Below, piece by piece: positions 1,491 through 61,393 of a stretch of 64,000 nucleotides of DNA (within the stretch, counting starts at the first letter, position 1; every line of letters starts with the position of its first letter). The position numbers and the translations under genes were made by a program. Origin of the DNA: Candidatus Angelobacter sp. (GTDB lineage: Bacteria; Acidobacteriota; Terriglobia; Terriglobales; Acidobacteriaceae). Where the stretch lies: positions 7,896 through 71,895 of the forward strand of contig DATDGL010000059.1 in the NCBI GenBank assembly GCA_036522115.1, written 5' to 3'. Below the pieces are notes generated by a model, which was not told where the DNA came from, made no database searches, and saw nothing but the letters and a program-made list of their open reading frames with translations.

Positions 1491-2132
1491 AGGATAGATT
1501 CGCTAGCTATGCAGAGGCTCGGTGTTTTGGGTCGAGCTTAAGGCGAAGGCTGGTTAAAGACTAGCAGTCTGTTCTCTACAACAACGATGTGGTGTGTAAA
1601 ACGCATGTTTGCGTGTCTCAGACTTCGTTTGCATGTGAACAAAATCTGTCAGACCCTTGATTGTTGGTTCATTTTGTCGTCAGGCATCCACGCCAACCTT
1701 TGAAGCTGAGGCGCTAACTCGACGCTAGGGATTCAATAGAATGCTTAGGGGGTGAGTTGGTGGGATTGCTAATGGCCCGTTCAACAGGCGAGCGGCACGT
1801 GACCGTTGTGCCGCCCATGAACAACCTTCCGGTTGGCTCATAAGTTGGCTCCCCGGGGCAAAAGATGCTCGAATAAAGATCACGCTAAGTCGATGCATGG
1901 ATGCCGATCGATATCCAGCGATGAAAGCGAGGGCCGAAAGAGGTGGCTGAAATACATCGGCAACCCCTTTTCTATGAATGAGATATACCTGTTTCAGGAC
2001 GCGACAGCAGCACCGTGGCCAGCGGGAACCCCTGAGTGTAATTTAGTCCAAAACCGTCCCTGGCCACCATTCATTTCGACTCTTCGTCTCTTGATTTCAA
2101 CCGTTCACCGTATTGATCTCACGTTTACACTT

Positions 2133-2159
2133 AGTACCCATTTCAGGTACTATCGTACC
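2133..2159. promoter_or_regulatory. Candidate operator: AGTACC-N7-GGTACT plus a third GTACC half-site, directly upstream of the wHTH-NTase gene
   Basis: AGTACC at 2133-2138, its perfect inverted partner GGTACT at 2146-2151, and GTACC at 2155-2159. The site ends 4 nt before the ATG at 2164. Confidence 0.3.
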
Positions 2160-2163
2160 TAAT

Positions 2164-2775
2164 ATGAGTTCAGGCGCAGTCCGCTCCGCAGGCCCCAGTC
2201 TATTCGGCCAGACGCGTGGCGCACTGTTGGCTCTGCTTTACGGTCATATTGACCAATCTTTCTATCTGCGCCAGCTTGTCCGGGAAGTTGGCGCCGGACA
2301 TGGCGCGCTTCAGAGGGAACTTAAACACCTGACGGATTTGGGCTTGCTAGTTCGCAGAATGCAGGGCAATCAGGTTCTCTACCAGGCAAATTCTCAGAGC
2401 CCGATCTTTCCTGAAATTAGGAGTCTGATCGCGAAGACCGTGGGTGTGCATGATGCCATTCGTTCGGTTTTAGCGCGCCTGGGTTCAGAAATTCAGATTG
2501 CTTTTATCTACGGCTCGGTGGCCCGTCAAATGGAGAGGGCAAACAGCGATGTGGATTTGATGGTCCTGGGGAACGTATCCTTTGGCGACGTCGTCACATC
2601 TCTTGCAACAGCACAGAAAAACATCGCCAGAGAAATCAACCCAGCAGTTTCTTCACTACCCGAATTTCAGTCAAAATTGAAGTCAGGAAACCATTTCATC
2701 CTCAATGTTATGAAGGAAAAGAAGCTCTTCGTCGTAGGAACCGAGCATGACCTTGCACAATTGGTTTCAAAATAG
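2164..2775 (+). CDS. Winged-HTH + nucleotidyltransferase-domain protein (MNT-type partner of a HEPN protein)
   Basis: ORF 2113..2775; the first ATG is at 2164. The N-terminus is ArsR-like (LRQLVREVGAGHGALQRELKHLTDLGLLV). The NTase signature is IYGSVARQMERANSDVDLMVLG (GS...D.D). Confidence 0.7.
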   Translation: MSSGAVRSAGPSLFGQTRGALLALLYGHIDQSFYLRQLVREVGAGHGALQRELKHLTDLGLLVRRMQGNQVLYQANSQSPIFPEIRSLIAKTVGVHDAIRSVLARLGSEIQIAFIYGSVARQMERANSDVDLMVLGNVSFGDVVTSLATAQKNIAREINPAVSSLPEFQSKLKSGNHFILNVMKEKKLFVVGTEHDLAQLVSK

Positions 2776-3196
2776 TTGGCTCGTCCAGCACACGACTGGC
2801 GCACAGGAGATTGCCAATCTCTTGGAGCTTTCAGATCGCGATTTAAGAGCATGCCAATTACCGGGGCTTCCTGCCGACTGGCGATTTTCCATCGCCTACA
2901 ATGCAGCCCTGCAAGCAGCAACTGCTGCCCTGGCCGCTGCAGGTTACCGAGCGGCACGGGACAATCATCATTATCGAATAATCCAATCTCTGGAGTTCAC
3001 GACAGATCCAGGCGAAAAAGTGATTGATACTTTTGACGGTTTTCGCAAAAAGCGTAACATCAGCAGCTATGATCTTGCAGGGTCCGTCTCCGATAAGGAG
3101 GCGGCCGAGATGCTCAAACTCGCCAGGGGCCTTCGTGCCGACGTGCAAAAGTGGATCCGAACGACTCGCCCGGAACTGCTCAAGTCCAAACCATAG
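2747..3196 (+). CDS. HEPN-like domain protein, putative toxin partner of the upstream NTase
   Basis: Overlaps the NTase gene by 29 nt. AGGA lies 8 nt before the ATG. The protein is helical with an FRKKRNISSYD motif (R-x2-RN-x3-Y type HEPN-like signature). The family assignment is tentative. Confidence 0.5.
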   Translation: MTLHNWFQNSWLVQHTTGAQEIANLLELSDRDLRACQLPGLPADWRFSIAYNAALQAATAALAAAGYRAARDNHHYRIIQSLEFTTDPGEKVIDTFDGFRKKRNISSYDLAGSVSDKEAAEMLKLARGLRADVQKWIRTTRPELLKSKP

Positions 3197-4332: not shown

Positions 4333-4393
4333 GAGCAGGATCGCAGCCGCCGGGGTCCCCAGCGCACGCCGCTTTTGCGTGTGATGGGGTGGA
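4333..4393 (+). repeat. Solitary copy of the 'B' hairpin module that also occurs in the 5986-6660 array
   Basis: gcaggatcgcagccgccggggtCCCCAGCGCACGCcgcttttGCGTGTGATGGGGtgga. The 13-position stem (12 pairs) spans 4357-4369 and 4377-4389. Near-identical sequence occurs at ~6059-6106 and ~6303-6349. Confidence 0.8.
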
Positions 4394-4548
4394 CGCTTGG
4401 GCTGATAGCCATGACCCTGATGTCCCGGTCCTCTCTGACGAAGCCATGAGCCGACAGAGCATCTATCCAAACCTGGCATAAGGCTCTTCTCGCTCCTTCA
4501 TACCAGCCATACTTCTCCGATTGCGTTTACTCTCAATTGCGCATCGGC

Positions 4549-4974
4549 TTATATTGTGTTCCAAGGATTAATCACTGACACGCCAGCCTTGTCATAGTCC
4601 CTTCGATCACGCGTAACGACCGTAAGGCCATATTGAATGGCCGTTGCGGCAATGAGAATTTCTGGTTGAGAGTATGTGTGTCCAACTTTTCGTCCTTGTT
4701 CGACAAGAGTTCGCCATTTCAGCAGAATGTCCTCTGTCACTTGGAGAATTCGCTGGCTAAACATCGGACGAATATCATTTGTCAGCCAATGATTCAGGTC
4801 CGCACGTTGGGCGGGGTCACTGACTTGATCAATGCCAAAGCGAATCTCAGCGAGGGTTACTGAACTGATATAAGCTTGGCCGAGGGGAAGTGAGGAAATA
4901 AAAGCCACAACCCGTGCTTCGGGTCTTGGCTTTTTCAGCTCTGACAAAACATTGGTGTCGAGTAACCACGTCAT
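4549..4974 (-). CDS. vapC: PIN-domain toxin VapC
   Basis: 141 aa with LLDTNVLSE, TLAEIRFG, EILIAATA and VVTRDRRDY (PIN acidic residues). The start overlaps the upstream antitoxin stop (TAATG). Confidence 0.9.
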   Translation of the reverse strand: MTWLLDTNVLSELKKPRPEARVVAFISSLPLGQAYISSVTLAEIRFGIDQVSDPAQRADLNHWLTNDIRPMFSQRILQVTEDILLKWRTLVEQGRKVGHTYSQPEILIAATAIQYGLTVVTRDRRDYDKAGVSVINPWNTI

Positions 4975-5213: not shown

Positions 5214-5628
5214 TTTGTGACCTCCGCTTGACTAATTTCGCCTCAGCTAAGACTACTGAAAACATCCACAAGAAGCAATCGTGAGAAATTCACGGCCCGA
5301 ATGGGATGTTCTCCTGCCTCTTATATAGAGAGGACAGTAGGAAGAAAAATTCTTCGATGCTGAGAATCTTATAATTGTAATTGGCTCAGTAAAGGCTTTC
5401 ACGTGAGAAGGCTGCGTCGGGTGTAATTAAAAGTGAGAGTCACTATTTGCGAAGGGCCCCCCAACATGGTTCGTCATCCCGACGGTTTACCCACGCGCCA
5501 GCGGGGGTAAAGCGGAGGGACCTTGCGTTCAGCCGTTAACTCAAAAGCTTCCGAAGTGAACAGTATTGCGGCTAAATGGCTTTGCTTTTGGTGTGGATTT
5601 TCCTCTTGCCTATGGCCTGTTCCCTGGC

Positions 5629-5985
5629 CTACAGCTTAATTCTTTTCATCTTGAGCACTTTCATGCAGGCGGCAATGACCTGCCCGGTGTCGTAGCCGTA
5701 TTTCAACTCGGAAAGCTCGCGGATCAATTCATAAGTGCGCTTGCGCAGACGCATGCTTACCCGCACCACTTCCCTGTCTTTCGTCTGCGGTTCGGGCGCA
5801 GGAGGGTCTTCCATGCGGATGAGCATCTCCGTGGCTACCTGCAAGGCCCGGCCCTGTGAGCCGTAGGTCGGCACAGATTTCTTGATGGCCTTGGCCGTGT
5901 CCACGCTGATGGTGTACTTGGTGATGACAACGTCGGCAGAGTCACCGCCTTTGCCGATGCCCTTCTTTTGCTTCCAATCGCGCAT
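5629..5985 (-). CDS. Hypothetical protein (118 aa)
   Basis: The track ORF 5629..6180 runs into the repeat array, so I take Met66 (ATG at 5985, MRDWKQKK...) as the start. No recognisable family. Confidence 0.4.
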   Translation of the reverse strand: MRDWKQKKGIGKGGDSADVVITKYTISVDTAKAIKKSVPTYGSQGRALQVATEMLIRMEDPPAPEPQTKDREVVRVSMRLRKRTYELIRELSELKYGYDTGQVIAACMKVLKMKRIKL

Positions 5986-6660
5986 GGTGTCAGGGGATGT
6001 TGGGCATTGTGTGTACAGCGCGGCTGCGCCGCAAGAAAACAAATTCAGGACCGCAGCCCCCGGGGTCCCCAGCGCACGCCGCTTTTGCGTGTGATGGGGT
6101 GGAGGCGCCCTCGGCTGCGTCTTGTTTCGAGCAGGACCGCAGCCGCCCTCGGCTGCGTCTTGTTTTGAGAATGTTGCCACAGCATCGTAGACAGGTCAAC
6201 CGTCGCAACCCGCACTCCTGGCTCTCCACGAGGTGTCAGGGGATGTTGGGCATTGTGTGTACAGCGCGGCTGCACCGCAACACAACAAATTCAGGACCGC
6301 AGCCCCGGGGTCCCCAGCGCACGCCGCTTTTGCGTGTGATGGGGTGGAGGCCGCCCTCGGCTGCGTCTTGTTTCGAGCAGGACCGCAGCCGCCCTCGGCT
6401 GCGTCTTGTTTTGAGCAGGACCGCAGCCGCCCTCGGCTGCGTCTTTCGAGAATGTTGCCACAGCATCGTAGACAGGTCAACCGTCGCAAACCGCACTCCT
6501 GGCTCTCCACGAGGTGTCAGGGGATGTTGGGCATTGTGTGTACCGCGCGGCTGCGCCGCAACACAACAAATTCAGGACCGCAGCCGCCCTCGGCTGCGTC
6601 TTGTTTTGAGAATGTTGCCACAGCATCGTGGACAGGTCAACCCTCGCAAACCGCTGCACA
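5986..6660 (+). repeat. Composite tandem repeat, ~2.7 units of 246-281 bp, each ending in 1-3 terminator-like hairpins
   Basis: Unit starts (GGTGTCAGGGGATGTTGGGCATTGTGTGTAC) are at 5986, 6232 and 6513. The hairpin module CGCAGCCG-CCCT-CGGCTGCG plus TCTTGTTTTG occurs intact at e.g. 6138-6167. The long ORFs here (5997..6770, 6233..6676 etc.) are repeat artefacts. Confidence 0.9.
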
Positions 6661-6771
6661 ATCCCGTGTGCATTAAGCTGATTTCACCAGCGTCCCCCGG
6701 GAAAACCGCTATCCTCTTTGACGTGAATGGATTGGGTGTTGCTAACACCATTCCACGAAGGGAGAAATGAA

Positions 6772-6897
6772 ATGCAAAGGATCATCATCAGGATAGCTGT
6801 GGCTCTGCTGTTATTGGTGGCCGGCGGTTCCACGGCGGTGGTCGAGGATACGTGCCCCGTACCGCTCTGCTACCCAAACCCCTGCACTGGCAATTGA
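6772..6897 (+). CDS. Small hydrophobic-leader / Cys-loop peptide, tandem copy 1 (41 aa)
   Basis: MQRIIIRIAVALLLLVAGGSTAVVEDTCPVPLCYPNPCTGN. The SD GAAGGGAGA sits 6-7 nt upstream of the ATG. Below the 60-aa cut-off of the ORF track. Confidence 0.5.
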   Translation: MQRIIIRIAVALLLLVAGGSTAVVEDTCPVPLCYPNPCTGN

Positions 6898-6958
6898 CTT
6901 TCTCTGACATGAACTGCTTGCACGTCTGAATACAAATTTTTATGAAGGGAGAAATGAA

Positions 6959-7084
6959 ATGCAAAGGATCATCATCAGGATAGCTGTGGCTCTGCTGTTA
7001 TTGGTGGCCGGTGGTTCGACGCCGGTGGTCGCGGACGGCTTTCCCGTGCCTCTCTGCTACCCCAACCCCTGCACTGGCAATTGA
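6959..7084 (+). CDS. Small hydrophobic-leader / Cys-loop peptide, tandem copy 2 (41 aa)
   Basis: MQRIIIRIAVALLLLVAGGSTPVVADGFPVPLCYPNPCTGN, with the same SD. It starts exactly 187 nt after copy 1. Confidence 0.5.
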   Translation: MQRIIIRIAVALLLLVAGGSTPVVADGFPVPLCYPNPCTGN

Positions 7085-7145
7085 CTTTCTCTGGCATGAA
7101 CTGCTTGCACGTTTGAATACAAATTTTTATGAAGGGAGAAATGAA

Positions 7146-7247
7146 ATGCAAAGGATCATCATCAGGATAGCTGTGGCCCTGCTGTTATCGGTGGCTGGCG
7201 GTTCCACGCCAGCCGGACGACTGGGAGCGCATTCCCCCACCCGTTGA
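7146..7247 (+). CDS. Small peptide, tandem copy 3 with divergent C-terminus (33 aa)
   Basis: MQRIIIRIAVALLLSVAGGSTPAGRLGAHSPTR. It starts exactly 187 nt after copy 2 with the same SD and leader. The Cys-loop part is lost at the end of the array. Confidence 0.35.
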   Translation: MQRIIIRIAVALLLSVAGGSTPAGRLGAHSPTR

Positions 7248-7577
7248 CGAGGGGTATTGCCTACTTGGCAAGCGTTCGTGGTGCCGACGTGATAGCCAAC
7301 AAATTATCAACGTGAGTGCTCAGTTCCACCACCATCTGATAATCGCGAACAGTAGATTCCCCAAATCTGTTAAGCACCCCTGCGTTGCGGCCTGGTCCCG
7401 CTTGCTTTTGTGGTGGCCCGAATGGTCGTTGCATTCTATTTTCCTTTCCCAAATTGGCTTACTGAGCACATCCTAAACTAAGACAAGGTGTAACAAATTT
7501 GTAGCTGTCCAAAACCTCTGGGAATCTAAGGTTTCAATATGTCGGTGGCGCTGTCACCGGCGGCAAGGCGGATGTAT

Positions 7578-8000
7578 TTAAATGGGAACTCTCTCAAGCG
7601 GAACGATGAACTGAATGCCATCCACCTTTTTTCTCTGGAGTCTGGCATCGTTGGTGACGAAAAGGTCAATGCCAGCGTCGGCAGCGCAGGCAAGCTGAAT
7701 GGCATCGGGCGGGCGAAGAGCACGGTCCGAGCGGAGCGAAGCGTAAATCCGCGCCGCTTTTGTATCGAAGGGAAGGATGAGTGCGGCGGCTGTAATAGCT
7801 GTCTCATACCGCGAGCATAGTTGCATGTCTCCCTGTTCCGTTGGCTTGACGAGGATCTCTCCCAACGTGAGCGTGGACGTCAGCAACTGGTCGCCGCGCG
7901 CCAACATTTTCGTGCGGAGAGCTGCTGTTGCCTTCGATAGCGGGCCATAGTCTTCAAACAAGTAGATGAACAGATTGGTGTCCCAGAAGATGCGGCTCAT
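7578..8000 (-). CDS. vapC: PIN-domain toxin VapC
   Basis: 140 aa with FWDTNLFIY, TLGEILV, PPDAIQLACA and FVTNDARL. There is an ATGA overlap with the upstream gene. Confidence 0.85.
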   Translation of the reverse strand: MSRIFWDTNLFIYLFEDYGPLSKATAALRTKMLARGDQLLTSTLTLGEILVKPTEQGDMQLCSRYETAITAAALILPFDTKAARIYASLRSDRALRPPDAIQLACAADAGIDLFVTNDARLQRKKVDGIQFIVPLERVPI

Positions 8001-8497
8001 TCCCAGCCCTCGCGGAGCCGGCGCACATAGTCGTCCGCATGTTCATCCGCCCACAGGTGCTTGCCTGAGCCACGCAAGGCGAGCAGCGGATCGGCCTTGG
8101 CGGCAGCCCTGGCCGCGGCCGCAGACCATCCTTCATACCAGTTCAACAGGCCGTCGTAGCCATAAGGCATGTCTTCCCGACGCGGCGTGATCTTGGCATC
8201 GTCACGTCCAGGATGATACGAATCGCCTTTGCGGAAGAGGCGGCGTCGGCCCGCAGCGGTTTCAAACAGCATCCGGTACCGCCCGGGGTTGGGTGGGCGG
8301 TTGGCAACGCAATGTTGCACCACGTGAACGTACACGCCGGGGCGGAAGGGAAGGTTGCGGGCTTCCCGCTTTGCACGATCGACGATCTCTTCGATTGTGA
8401 AATCTCCACGCTCAGGATGCTCCCGGTGAAGTAGAGCAACAGCAATCCAAACTTCGTCGGCGACTTTAATGGCCGTCTTTGCAATGACTGGTTTCAT
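7997..8497 (-). CDS. Unrecognised ~166-aa protein in the antitoxin position of a PIN module (paralogue of 55112..55615)
   Basis: The track ORF is 7997..8638; I take Met48 (ATG at 8497, MKPVIAKTAIKVADEVW...) as the start. It shares IKVADEVW.A..LLHRE.P.R.DF...EIV.RA, HCVA...PNP.R.RML.ET..GRRRLFR.GD and WYE with the second copy. Confidence 0.6.
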   Translation of the reverse strand: MKPVIAKTAIKVADEVWIAVALLHREHPERGDFTIEEIVDRAKREARNLPFRPGVYVHVVQHCVANRPPNPGRYRMLFETAAGRRRLFRKGDSYHPGRDDAKITPRREDMPYGYDGLLNWYEGWSAAAARAAAKADPLLALRGSGKHLWADEHADDYVRRLREGWE

Positions 8498-8546: not shown

Positions 8547-8804
8547 TTGGTCCCTGTCGCCAACGCGGTGCAGATTTCCAGGGTTATTGATGCAAGAGGA
8601 CTGACCCAGGTTGAAGCGGCGGCGGTGCTGAAAGTCAATCAGCCTGAAATATCCGATCTCCTGCGTGGACGCCTTAAAGGTTTTTCGACAGAACGACTTT
8701 TTCGTTTTCTAAATTTGCCTGGTCAAGACGTGAACATGGTGATCCGTGAAAAACCAGCGCGCCGCTCTCATGCTCATGTTAGTGTGGCCGTTCAGTCCAT
8801 CTAA
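8547..8804 (+). CDS. XRE-family HTH protein (HigA/HTH_37-like), apparently short at the N-terminus, no toxin partner
   Basis: GLTQVEAAAVLKVNQPEISDLLRGRLKGFSTERLFRFLNLPGQDVNMVI is typical of the family. Only a non-ATG start is available, and the usual N-terminal helix looks missing. Confidence 0.5.
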   Translation: MVPVANAVQISRVIDARGLTQVEAAAVLKVNQPEISDLLRGRLKGFSTERLFRFLNLPGQDVNMVIREKPARRSHAHVSVAVQSI

Positions 8805-55839: not shown

Positions 55840-55865
55840 AAAACCGCAGCCGAGGGCGGCTACGG
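55836..55865 (-). terminator. Rho-independent terminator after ilvE (member of the GCAGCCG-N4-CGGCTGC hairpin family)
   Basis: The minus strand reads CCGTAGCCG-CCCT-CGGCTGCGG followed by TTTTTCAC, ~45 nt downstream of the ilvE stop. Confidence 0.55.
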
Positions 55866-55909
55866 TCCAAACTCCATTTCGTTTTTCAATTACCCAATTA
55901 CCCAATTTC

Positions 55910-61268: not shown

Positions 61269-61296
61269 GTGAAAGACGCAGCCGGGGGCGGCTGCG
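61269..61296 (-). terminator. Possible terminator after the VWA gene (same hairpin family)
   Basis: The minus strand reads CGCAGCCG-CCCC-CGGCTGCG followed by TCTTTCAC, ~100 nt downstream of the stop at 61394. Confidence 0.4.
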
Positions 61297-61393
61297 CTCC
61301 CGATTTGTTTGGCTGCGGCTTGCCGCGCCGTGCCTCCGTGGCAGGTGTGGGTCCTTGGTTGTGGCCCCGCTACATCGTGTAGGCGTAGAAACT

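Follow-up and report, generated by a model that had tools for sequence, protein, structure and literature searches.

A probably orphaned tandem array of Cys-loop peptide genes in Candidatus Angelobacter, and the seven-helix membrane protein that accompanies the family in its relatives

What is the role of three small, evenly spaced open reading frames (ORFs) on a contig of Candidatus Angelobacter sp., a member of the Terriglobia (Acidobacteriota)? The DNA analyzed is a 64-kb stretch (here called the window) of contig DATDGL010000059.1, part of a metagenome-assembled genome (MAG) built from short reads. An initial annotation had seen in the ORFs either secreted disulfide-loop peptides, possibly akin to ribosomally synthesized and post-translationally modified peptides (RiPPs), or a type I toxin-like array of small membrane peptides. 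We find that they are genuine genes of a conserved, unannotated small-protein family of Terriglobia. The best overall explanation, to which we assign a probability of about 0.6, is that the family consists of conserved genes for exported Cys-loop peptides which in relatives are linked to the gene of a seven-transmembrane-helix (7-TM) protein, and that the window holds an orphaned array of them. The parts of the array are the following:

6757..6765, + strand: Shine-Dalgarno (SD) motif GAAGGGAGA of copy 1
6772..6897, + strand: peptide gene copy 1, 41 aa, MQRIIIRIAVALLLLVAGGSTAVVEDTCPVPLCYPNPCTGN; family hidden Markov model (HMM) E 6e-19
6944..6952, + strand: SD of copy 2, same GAAGGGAGA motif
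6959..7084, + strand: peptide gene copy 2, 41 aa, canonical; family HMM E 4e-22
7131..7139, + strand: SD of copy 3, same GAAGGGAGA motif
7146..7247, + strand: copy 3, truncated remnant, 33-aa ORF without Cys; HMM match confined to the leader, E 5e-6

With Tandem Repeats Finder, 6757-7210 comes out as a single tandem array (period 187, 2.4 copies, 92% matches, 0 indels, score 782). The start codons at 6772, 6959 and 7146 are spaced by exactly 187 nt and each is preceded by GAAGGGAGAAATGAA, just as first annotated; the 41-aa translations given for copies 1 and 2 were likewise reproduced exactly, and copy 3 does keep the leader and end differently, with 21 leader codons retained before the sequence diverges into a 33-aa ORF. 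Calling the three units exact is right for their spacing and wrong for their sequences, given that 15 of the 187 positions are different between units 1 and 2 (92% identity) and unit 3 is homologous over only about 78 nt, at 96-97% identity. Over leader codons 1-21, copy 3 departs from copy 2 by four synonymous changes and one Leu-to-Ser replacement, and the sequence thereafter is unrelated. A frameshifted continuation of copy 3 was considered and discarded: the out-of-frame string FPHPL is present, but no Cys loop comes after it and there is no similarity to any locus, so that we treat the string as a chance occurrence.

The family was defined by an exhaustive HMMER profile search of 1.84 billion representatives (E<=1e-3), which recovered 126 representative clusters, most of the proteins being 39-46 aa long; a word-indexed search returned copy 2 itself (P0001, identical to NCBI VI636_07080, a hypothetical protein of Candidatus Angelobacter sp. 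encoded on a 73.7-kb contig) and two distant relatives in which the frame is kept. As first stated, no known family is matched: Pfam and NCBIfam hold no model for the peptide, scans against PADLOC and PHROGs were also without match, and full-text literature searches on the core motifs and on peptides secreted by Acidobacteria gave nothing relevant. Standard annotation misses these genes, with gene calls on most related contigs omitting the peptide gene and copies 1 and 3 missing from the protein database. An SD-like motif lies upstream of 69 of the 70 unique family genes recovered from the loci, and relatives losing the frame or the SD, proposed at the outset as a ground for abandoning a coding role, were not seen among these 70. 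The homology search suggested there thus supports a real coding family, and the comparison of synonymous and non-synonymous change suggested alongside it gives a dN/dS of 0.30 over 214 gene pairs (0.43 in the signal part), which indicates purifying selection.

Judged from its sequences, the family has the anatomy of a Sec signal peptide, predicted to be cut by signal peptidase I, followed by a small putative disulfide loop. The consensus reads M-K-K-T-I-V-R-I, about 12 hydrophobic residues, G-S-T-P-V-L-A-D-G-(G)-x-P-x-P-[LIF]-C-[YWF]-P-x(1-3)-C and a tail of 2-4 residues, with P-x-P-L-C-Y-P-x-P-C as the core motif. In a rule-based count on 133 unique single-core peptides, 130 of which were scored per position, residue -1 of the putative cleavage site was always small (Ala in 108/130, Gly or Ser in the remainder; A/G/S 130/130), -3 was Val in 82/130 and Val, Ala or Leu in 110/130, and +1 was Asp in 103/130. 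Residues 1-8 carry two or three Lys or Arg, and the uncharged run that follows has a median of 18 residues, so that n-region charge, uncharged core and small -3/-1 residues, as expected of a Sec signal, are found across the family. The median length of the predicted mature part is 17 aa, with a net charge near 0, a grand average of hydropathy (GRAVY) of -0.39 and 28% proline. It contains exactly two Cys in 126 of 130 peptides, spaced as CX4C in 62 cores, CX5C in 50 and CX6C in 25; the Cys pair and its adjacent aromatic residue are invariant, and the core columns have the lowest entropy of the alignment, so that no other part of the peptide is as well conserved as the core. An even number of conserved cysteines at fixed spacing is what a disulfide loop calls for, and the bond itself is predicted on that ground. 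A lipobox-like Cys occurs eight residues before the Ala-Asp site in about 20-28% of members; the window copies have Gly there. The secreted disulfide-loop half of the first reading is therefore supported by the Sec anatomy, the -3/-1 rule and the two cysteines, and its RiPP-like half, taken as membership of a known RiPP class, is not.

Copy 2 of the window fits this scheme, with a signal peptide ending in STPVVA before Asp-Gly, a predicted mature peptide DGFPVPLCYPNPCTGN and the CX4C spacing. Copy 1 satisfies the small-residue rule only at an alternative site, between STA and VV; set against the 130 family peptides counted, it alone has Glu at -1 and a third Cys, and it may be cleaved at the alternative site or be decaying.

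To see what accompanies the peptide genes elsewhere, we draw on two scans. One, of one genome per species with a hand-made pattern for the motif YGSQGRALQVAT of the regulator encoded next to the array (described below), gave seven loci, all from Terriglobia, Candidatus Angelobacter or Acidobacteriaceae MAGs; the other, of metagenomes with a DNA pattern for PxPLCYPxPC, gave 120 loci, of which 51 carry true family genes by HMM and the others are chance matches. Tropical soil and peat were the sampled sources of L029, L061 and L010. Linkage counts span all loci, some of them redundant, except that the 194-aa gene was counted on non-redundant loci. The gene of a 7-TM protein of about 252 aa starts 15-140 nt past the last peptide gene in 57 of the 58 loci whose downstream flank reaches 500 nt or more. 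A divergent gene for a 118-aa ribbon-helix-helix (RHH) protein is present in 31 of 38 loci having at least 900 nt of upstream flank, and a gene of about 194 aa follows the 7-TM gene in 38 of 48 non-redundant loci, most of the others stopping at a contig edge. Across some 50 related loci these three are the only conserved neighbors, and none matches Pfam or NCBIfam. The initial remark that no partner gene is adjacent consequently holds for the window and fails for the family.

The order peptide, 7-TM, 194-aa is kept in divergent and multi-core members, even where the adjacent regulator belongs to the TetR family. In L139, L140, L143 and L141 the peptide-to-7-TM order persists while TetR-family regulators or an unrelated 139-aa protein replace the tandem RHH protein; order retained despite a swapped regulator points to the peptide and the membrane protein as the core pair. 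In one lineage (L010-L014, e.g. L011 1376-9469), a resistance-nodulation-division (RND) efflux operon, made up of one membrane-fusion protein and two 1044-aa pumps, follows the RHH gene on the same strand, a neighbor not conserved in the other loci.

The window is the exception to this linkage. The regulator and 2.4 peptide genes are kept, the array is cut inside copy 3, and on the other strand downstream lies a PIN/VapC gene. The cut falls at:

7209..7210, no strand: breakpoint, beyond which there is no homology either to the repeat unit or to any related locus

In blastn searches no related locus matches the window beyond 7208, and no homologue of the 7-TM or the 194-aa protein occurs anywhere in the 64 kb. 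Upstream of the cut, gene 1, spacer and gene 2 are colinear with the arrays of metagenome contigs L061, L054, L052 and L029, whose first two peptide genes are likewise 185-188 nt apart. We read the window array as an orphaned remnant or as an extra array acting in trans. The same MAG encodes a second RHH paralogue (VI636_09010, P0146; 87% identical), which hints at a second, possibly complete, locus.

The differences between the window's two full copies are not spread evenly. Of the 15 differing nucleotides, 13 fall within 6825-6876 (codons 18-35), the first 17 codons are identical, and only 2 positions of the 61-nt spacer differ. Ten codons are changed, six of them synonymously, and the four amino-acid changes all affect residues 22-28. 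The clustering described at the start is thus correct for the amino acids, whereas at the nucleotide level the patch is wider and mostly synonymous. By the Nei-Gojobori method the proportions of synonymous (pS) and non-synonymous (pN) differences are 0.24 and 0.059 overall, and 0.52 and 0.09 in the mature part (counted from the family's Asp at +1). Diversifying or positive selection on the patch is ruled out by this excess of pS over pN in the mature part. Since synonymous divergence is even higher there, the patch appears to be an older, diverged stretch between homogenized flanks, and the near-identical leaders and spacers around it indicate an older duplication later homogenized by gene conversion. 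In a related soil-metagenome locus, L001, nucleotides 15-102 (SD and leader) are 90% identical to window 6748-6835 and the core is different (GPGMPPTCPPGEVCK), which hints at recombination or conversion at the level of the leader between loci with different cores.

Amplification of the peptide is a recurrent feature of the family. There is one peptide gene in 48 loci, two in 9, three in 6, four in L029 and seven in L061 (arrays of 2-7 genes: L029, L052, L054, L056, L060, L061, L126, L132). Other members carry two to five cores in a single precursor (P0012, P0018, P0045, P0051, P0058, P0072, P0104, P0112 and, in L009, 3190-3000 on the minus strand), and in these a (L/F)(A/F)-D-G junction, imitating that of the signal peptide, stands before each core; in P0096, two entire tandem genes are fused in frame. 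The repeated gain of more peptide than membrane partner favors a released product over a stoichiometric subunit, and arrays and multi-core precursors alike would serve to raise the peptide dose. The internal junctions, which signal peptidase could not cut, imply a second protease cutting before Asp.

What kind of proteins are the partners? The 7-TM family has no sequence match in Pfam, NCBIfam, PADLOC, PHROGs or PDB. Its AlphaFold model (14 sequences; predicted local distance difference test score, pLDDT, 70; predicted template-modeling score, pTM, 0.67) shows seven transmembrane helices and a C-terminal amphipathic helix. Loops 1-2, 3-4 and 5-6 and the tail are rich in arginine and lysine, suggesting an N-out/C-in orientation that would place the conserved motifs HPPIQA and LRSxFG in periplasmic loops. 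A Foldseek search of the PDB with this model returned G-protein-coupled receptors (GPCRs) as its top 50 matches, all of them weak (E 8e-3 to 0.17, TM-score 0.3-0.56, root-mean-square deviation 6-14 A); peptide-binding and adhesion GPCRs led the list (7wuq_R, PTH1R, neurotensin and calcitonin receptors), at E 8e-3 to 0.1 and TM-scores near 0.5, none of them at E<=1e-3. The model thus suggests a seven-helix bundle of GPCR-like topology, and no more than that. No conserved catalytic-type motif such as HExxH or GxSxG is seen in the alignment. The 194-aa protein has an N-terminal hydrophobic segment, predicted to span the membrane, and then a positively charged stretch; family libraries and PDB sequence profiles gave no match to a known family.

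The third partner is still present in the window:

5632..5985, - strand: 118-aa tandem RHH protein, divergent from the array, likely a local transcription regulator

Its AlphaFold2 model (pLDDT 84) consists of two beta-alpha-alpha units, E19-27/H28-41/H44-57 and E73-81/H82-95/H100-115, and by this model the protein is a single-chain tandem ribbon-helix-helix fold. The best Foldseek matches are F-plasmid relaxosome accessory chains, DndE and the tandem-RHH regulator AvtR (E 2e-3 to 0.3), consistent with a likely role as local transcription regulator; Pfam, NCBIfam, PADLOC and PHROGs have no sequence match and a PDB sequence-profile search gave nothing meaningful. The homologues form 78 clusters, and the window protein is 61% identical to the syntenic gene in L002, among the contigs with the distant peptide P0003. 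NCBI annotates the gene as 183 aa (P0143, window 5629-6180, minus strand), while homologues measure 115-120 aa and begin at the Met at 5985; NCBI has thus probably placed the start too far upstream, within the repeats.

Between this gene and the array lies an expanded control region, and a possible terminator follows the array:

5986..6660, no strand: control region between the RHH gene and the array, a tandem triplication with units of about 246-281 nt
6163..6205, + strand: conserved intergenic element copy a, palindrome GATGTTG-N3-CAGCATC, candidate operator
6444..6486, + strand: conserved intergenic element copy b
6604..6642, + strand: conserved intergenic element copy c, nearest the array
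7409..7433, + strand: terminator-like hairpin downstream of the array (consensus scan only)

Segment 5986-6304 matches 6232-6585 at 88% over 355 nt, and this triplication explains why the distance from regulator to peptide is about 790 nt in the window against about 200-470 nt in relatives. The element of 35-41 nt is 85-91% identical at the equivalent position in L061, L054, L029 and L015, with 30 invariant alignment columns and an aligned palindrome GATGTTG-N3-CA(A/G)CATC, while the intergenic DNA around it is not conserved; from this pattern the palindrome is a candidate operator. The triplication multiplies it three-fold, and in L054 two tandem RHH genes each have their own copy. Each unit carries, besides this element, a REP-like G+C hairpin, CGCAGCCGCCCTCGGCTGCG, with a T-rich tail, at 6138-6157, 6384-6403 and 6579-6598 (+), which scores as an intrinsic terminator and has dispersed relatives at 4336-4396, 55845-55868 (-) and 61273-61331 (-). 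A second dispersed element of 39 nt, GGTCCCCAGCGCACGCCGCTTTTGCGTGTGATGGGGTGG, is identical at 4354, 6064 and 6309.

How might these parts work together? In the scheme that we favor, the precursor would be exported by Sec and cut by signal peptidase I (in copy 2, after VVA), releasing a peptide of about 16 aa, DGFPVPLCYPNPCTGN, in which Cys33 and Cys38 would form a CX4C disulfide in the oxidizing periplasm. The peptide would act as ligand or modulator of the co-encoded 7-TM protein, with a binding site at the periplasmic loops HPPIQA and LRSxFG; the 7-TM protein would pass the signal on by way of its cytoplasmic tail and the 194-aa protein, and the RHH protein would control the operon at the conserved palindromic operator. 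The ligand or modulator role is a tentative proposal, for which we would give somewhat less than even odds. It is suggested because the peptide and 7-TM genes are inseparable across deep divergence, because the exported loop is the peptide's most conserved part, because conserved periplasmic loops of the 7-TM protein offer a binding site, and because amplified dosage and multi-core precursors are what peptide signals typically show. The broader idea that the family is the ligand half of an unrecognized bacterial peptide-sensing system, widespread in soil Terriglobia and built from a stand-alone GPCR-like 7-TM protein and an anchored helical partner, with all four components as new families, is doubtful.

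Several observations weigh against this picture. The cluster encodes no outer-membrane route for a 1.7-kDa peptide, which may stay in the periplasm; in a two-membrane host this weakens a cell-to-cell signaling role. Neither the 7-TM nor the 194-aa protein has a recognizable output domain (kinase, cyclase or DNA-binding). The regulator is interchangeable (RHH or TetR) and so is maybe a plain local repressor instead of the end of a signaling chain, and the weak GPCR matches, with deviations around 10 A, may reflect only a generic seven-helix bundle. Judging by the lipobox-like Cys, some members may be lipoproteins and not free peptides. For the mature region, dN/dS comes out at 0.16, a value skewed downward by the search itself, since the pattern that recovered most loci already fixes eight core residues. 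Finally, a mis-join in the repeated array of a MAG could mimic the truncation at 7209.

Other functions for the family have to be weighed against these. The tandem arrays of slightly different peptides, the multi-TM gene directly downstream in 57/58 loci, the lack of a signaling output domain in the membrane partners and the position of the window locus in a variable region rich in toxin-antitoxin genes would all suit Sec-dependent bacteriocin-like peptides, with the 7-TM protein (with or without the 194-aa protein) as immunity and the window as an orphan toxin array. We nevertheless think this unlikely: mature peptides that are this short, nearly neutral, hydrophilic and proline-rich are unlike pore-forming class II bacteriocins, the core is the part most conserved across diverged lineages instead of diversifying, no outer-membrane export route is encoded, and an orphan array without immunity would harm its producer unless a second locus protects it. 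A periplasmic thiol peptide that binds metal or buffers redox state, its Cys-Tyr-Pro-x-Pro-Cys site holding a soft metal or alternating between dithiol and disulfide, with the 7-TM and 194-aa proteins in uptake, export or sensing and a stress-responsive regulator, would account for the invariant Cys pair and aromatic residue, for a high dosage suited to a stoichiometric buffer and for a Sec-exported peptide that remains periplasmic when no outer-membrane exporter is present; RHH and TetR regulators commonly control metal or efflux genes, and an RND operon adjoins the RHH gene in L010-L014. But that operon is not conserved in other loci, library scans gave no match to any known metal-handling family, and a tight CX4C loop with prolines on both sides of its two thiols is more often that of a structural disulfide, so that we regard a metal or redox role as rather improbable.

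The regular (L/F)(A/F)-D-G junctions of multi-core precursors, which need another protease, the leaders shared within gene arrays (and the L001 leader, joined to a different core), and the fact that the membrane partners have no assigned function leave some room for a new RiPP class, in which the 7-TM and/or the 194-aa protein would be an unrecognized modifying or processing enzyme, for instance one cutting before each Asp-Gly. This we judge decidedly improbable. The conserved leader and variable core of the initial RiPP-like reading turn out to be a standard Sec signal and the best-conserved stretch of the peptide; known maturases (radical-SAM, YcaO, lanthionine synthetase, prolyl oligopeptidase and others) are encoded neither in the window nor in about 50 loci, so membership of a known RiPP class is unsupported, and the 7-TM alignment conserves no HExxH- or GxSxG-type motif. 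The second initial reading, a type I toxin-antitoxin-like array in which antisense RNA would repress small membrane peptides, draws on the small tandem ORFs, their hydrophobic N-terminal stretch and a neighborhood rich in toxin-antitoxin genes, and is hardly credible now. Its hydrophobic stretch ends in a conserved signal-peptidase site and is followed by the hydrophilic, nearly neutral, proline-rich and most conserved part, whereas a type I toxin is hydrophobic without a conserved soluble domain, and linkage to the 7-TM gene is constant. Among the annotated RNA families of Rfam there is no match in 5400-7700, and within the array a consensus scan of both strands found no promoter-like site. 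We also reject a conserved antisense ORF, the frame of the window's 58-aa antisense ORFs being open in only 4% of family genes.

A separate question, which bears on the state of the locus and not on the nature of the family, is whether the window array is a functionless relic left by a deletion, or an assembly artefact from a mis-join in a longer array, with copies that are decaying. The clear departure from the 57/58 rule, the truncated copy 3, the Glu at -1 and unpaired Cys found uniquely in copy 1, the control region abnormally expanded by repeats and the short-read origin of the MAG all speak for it; against it count the intact state of copy 2, of the three SD sites, of the regulator gene and of the operator elements, and a pN between the copies that is much below pS. 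We consider a relic or artefact somewhat unlikely, and an orphaned array of conserved peptide genes remains our preferred explanation. In the Candidatus Angelobacter MAG that has the intact locus L006, a second module copy is degraded (L008, DASUBD010000510.1, 2743-3436), with a split RHH gene, a partial 7-TM gene and no peptide gene detected, and so decay of extra module copies recurs. Just past the window's breakpoint lies the PIN/VapC gene (7578-8000, minus strand, Pfam E 1.6e-14), with a 166-aa ORF upstream of it (7997-8497, minus strand) that has no Pfam, NCBIfam or PADLOC match and would be an unusual VapC partner. Other toxin-antitoxin-like genes, judged by eye, are a nucleotidyltransferase/HEPN-like pair (2113-3196, +), a second PIN-like ORF (4549-4974, -) and an XRE-type helix-turn-helix ORF (8547-8804, +), a setting that would fit a variable, accessory part of the genome.

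The Acidobacteriota rank with the most abundant bacteria of soils and, to our knowledge, almost nothing is known of their communication or competition. The peptide, the 7-TM protein, the 194-aa protein and the tandem RHH protein are four families without names in the libraries searched. What is new here is an undescribed module of a predicted exported peptide and its membrane partner, seen in the window as an orphaned array and defined in relatives by four parts, near-absolute linkage and a peptide dosage that has been repeatedly amplified. If the receptor reading is true, a dominant soil phylum would have a new type of bacterial peptide sensing, with peptide hormone and 7-TM receptor paired in a two-membrane bacterium. 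The competing functions (signal, toxin, metal or redox buffer) can be tested because the peptide is short, DGFPVPLCYPNPCTGN with one disulfide is predicted, and a candidate operator is defined.

Comparison with known systems suggests that the module would work most like a pair of peptide signal and membrane sensor such as Agr or Phr of Firmicutes, and that its shape resembles the CX4C hormones with 7-TM receptors. Agr comprises the AgrD peptide, AgrB and the multi-TM sensor AgrC, and its ring is a thiolactone; Phr precursors, too, are exported with a Sec signal peptide, and peptide signals are in some cases multi-copy. Shared with these is a small ribosomal, cyclized or processed peptide beside a multi-pass membrane protein and a local regulator. 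Unlike in Agr, the ring here would be a disulfide, export would go through Sec without an AgrB-like protein, and the 7-TM protein lacks a histidine-kinase domain and ends in a short cytoplasmic helix: the module proteins have no HisKA/HATPase, LytTR or AgrB match, and include neither an AgrB-type processing protein nor a membrane histidine kinase with its response regulator. The module also differs from both systems in a regulator that is tandem RHH or TetR and not LytTR or RRNPP, in its two-membrane host, and in the absence of any sequence or family match.

Among the other candidates, class II Sec-dependent bacteriocins share the Sec leader, the disulfide predicted here, tandem peptide genes and a multi-TM gene directly downstream, and differ from the family in that its mature part is much shorter, neutral, proline-rich and not amphipathic, its core is strongly conserved, and its loci have no ABC transporter or accessory gene. 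Entericidins A and B of Enterobacteria are likewise tandem paralogous genes for exported peptides of about 40 aa (there, lipoproteins of 41-48 aa), a likeness extended by the lipobox-like Cys of a minority of the Cys-loop family; yet their mature part is an amphipathic helix and they have neither a Cys loop nor a 7-TM partner, the window copies have no lipobox Cys, and Pfam gives no entericidin match for the peptide at E<=10. RiPP arrays such as those of prochlorosins and cyanobactins also combine several precursor genes with similar leaders, some of them multi-core, whereas here the leader is a Sec signal, the core is conserved and not hypervariable, and no known maturase is nearby. The eukaryotic hormones offer an analogy only, given the weakness of the fold matches (E >= 8e-3), the lack of sequence similarity and the absence of G proteins from bacteria. 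Within that limit, yeast alpha-factor shares a multi-copy pheromone precursor with repeated cores and a 7-TM receptor, and oxytocin and vasopressin (CYIQNCPLG), whose ring we take to resemble that predicted in the window, share a short product with a Cys-Tyr-x-x-x-Cys ring and a three-residue tail, a precursor with a signal peptide, and a seven-helix partner.

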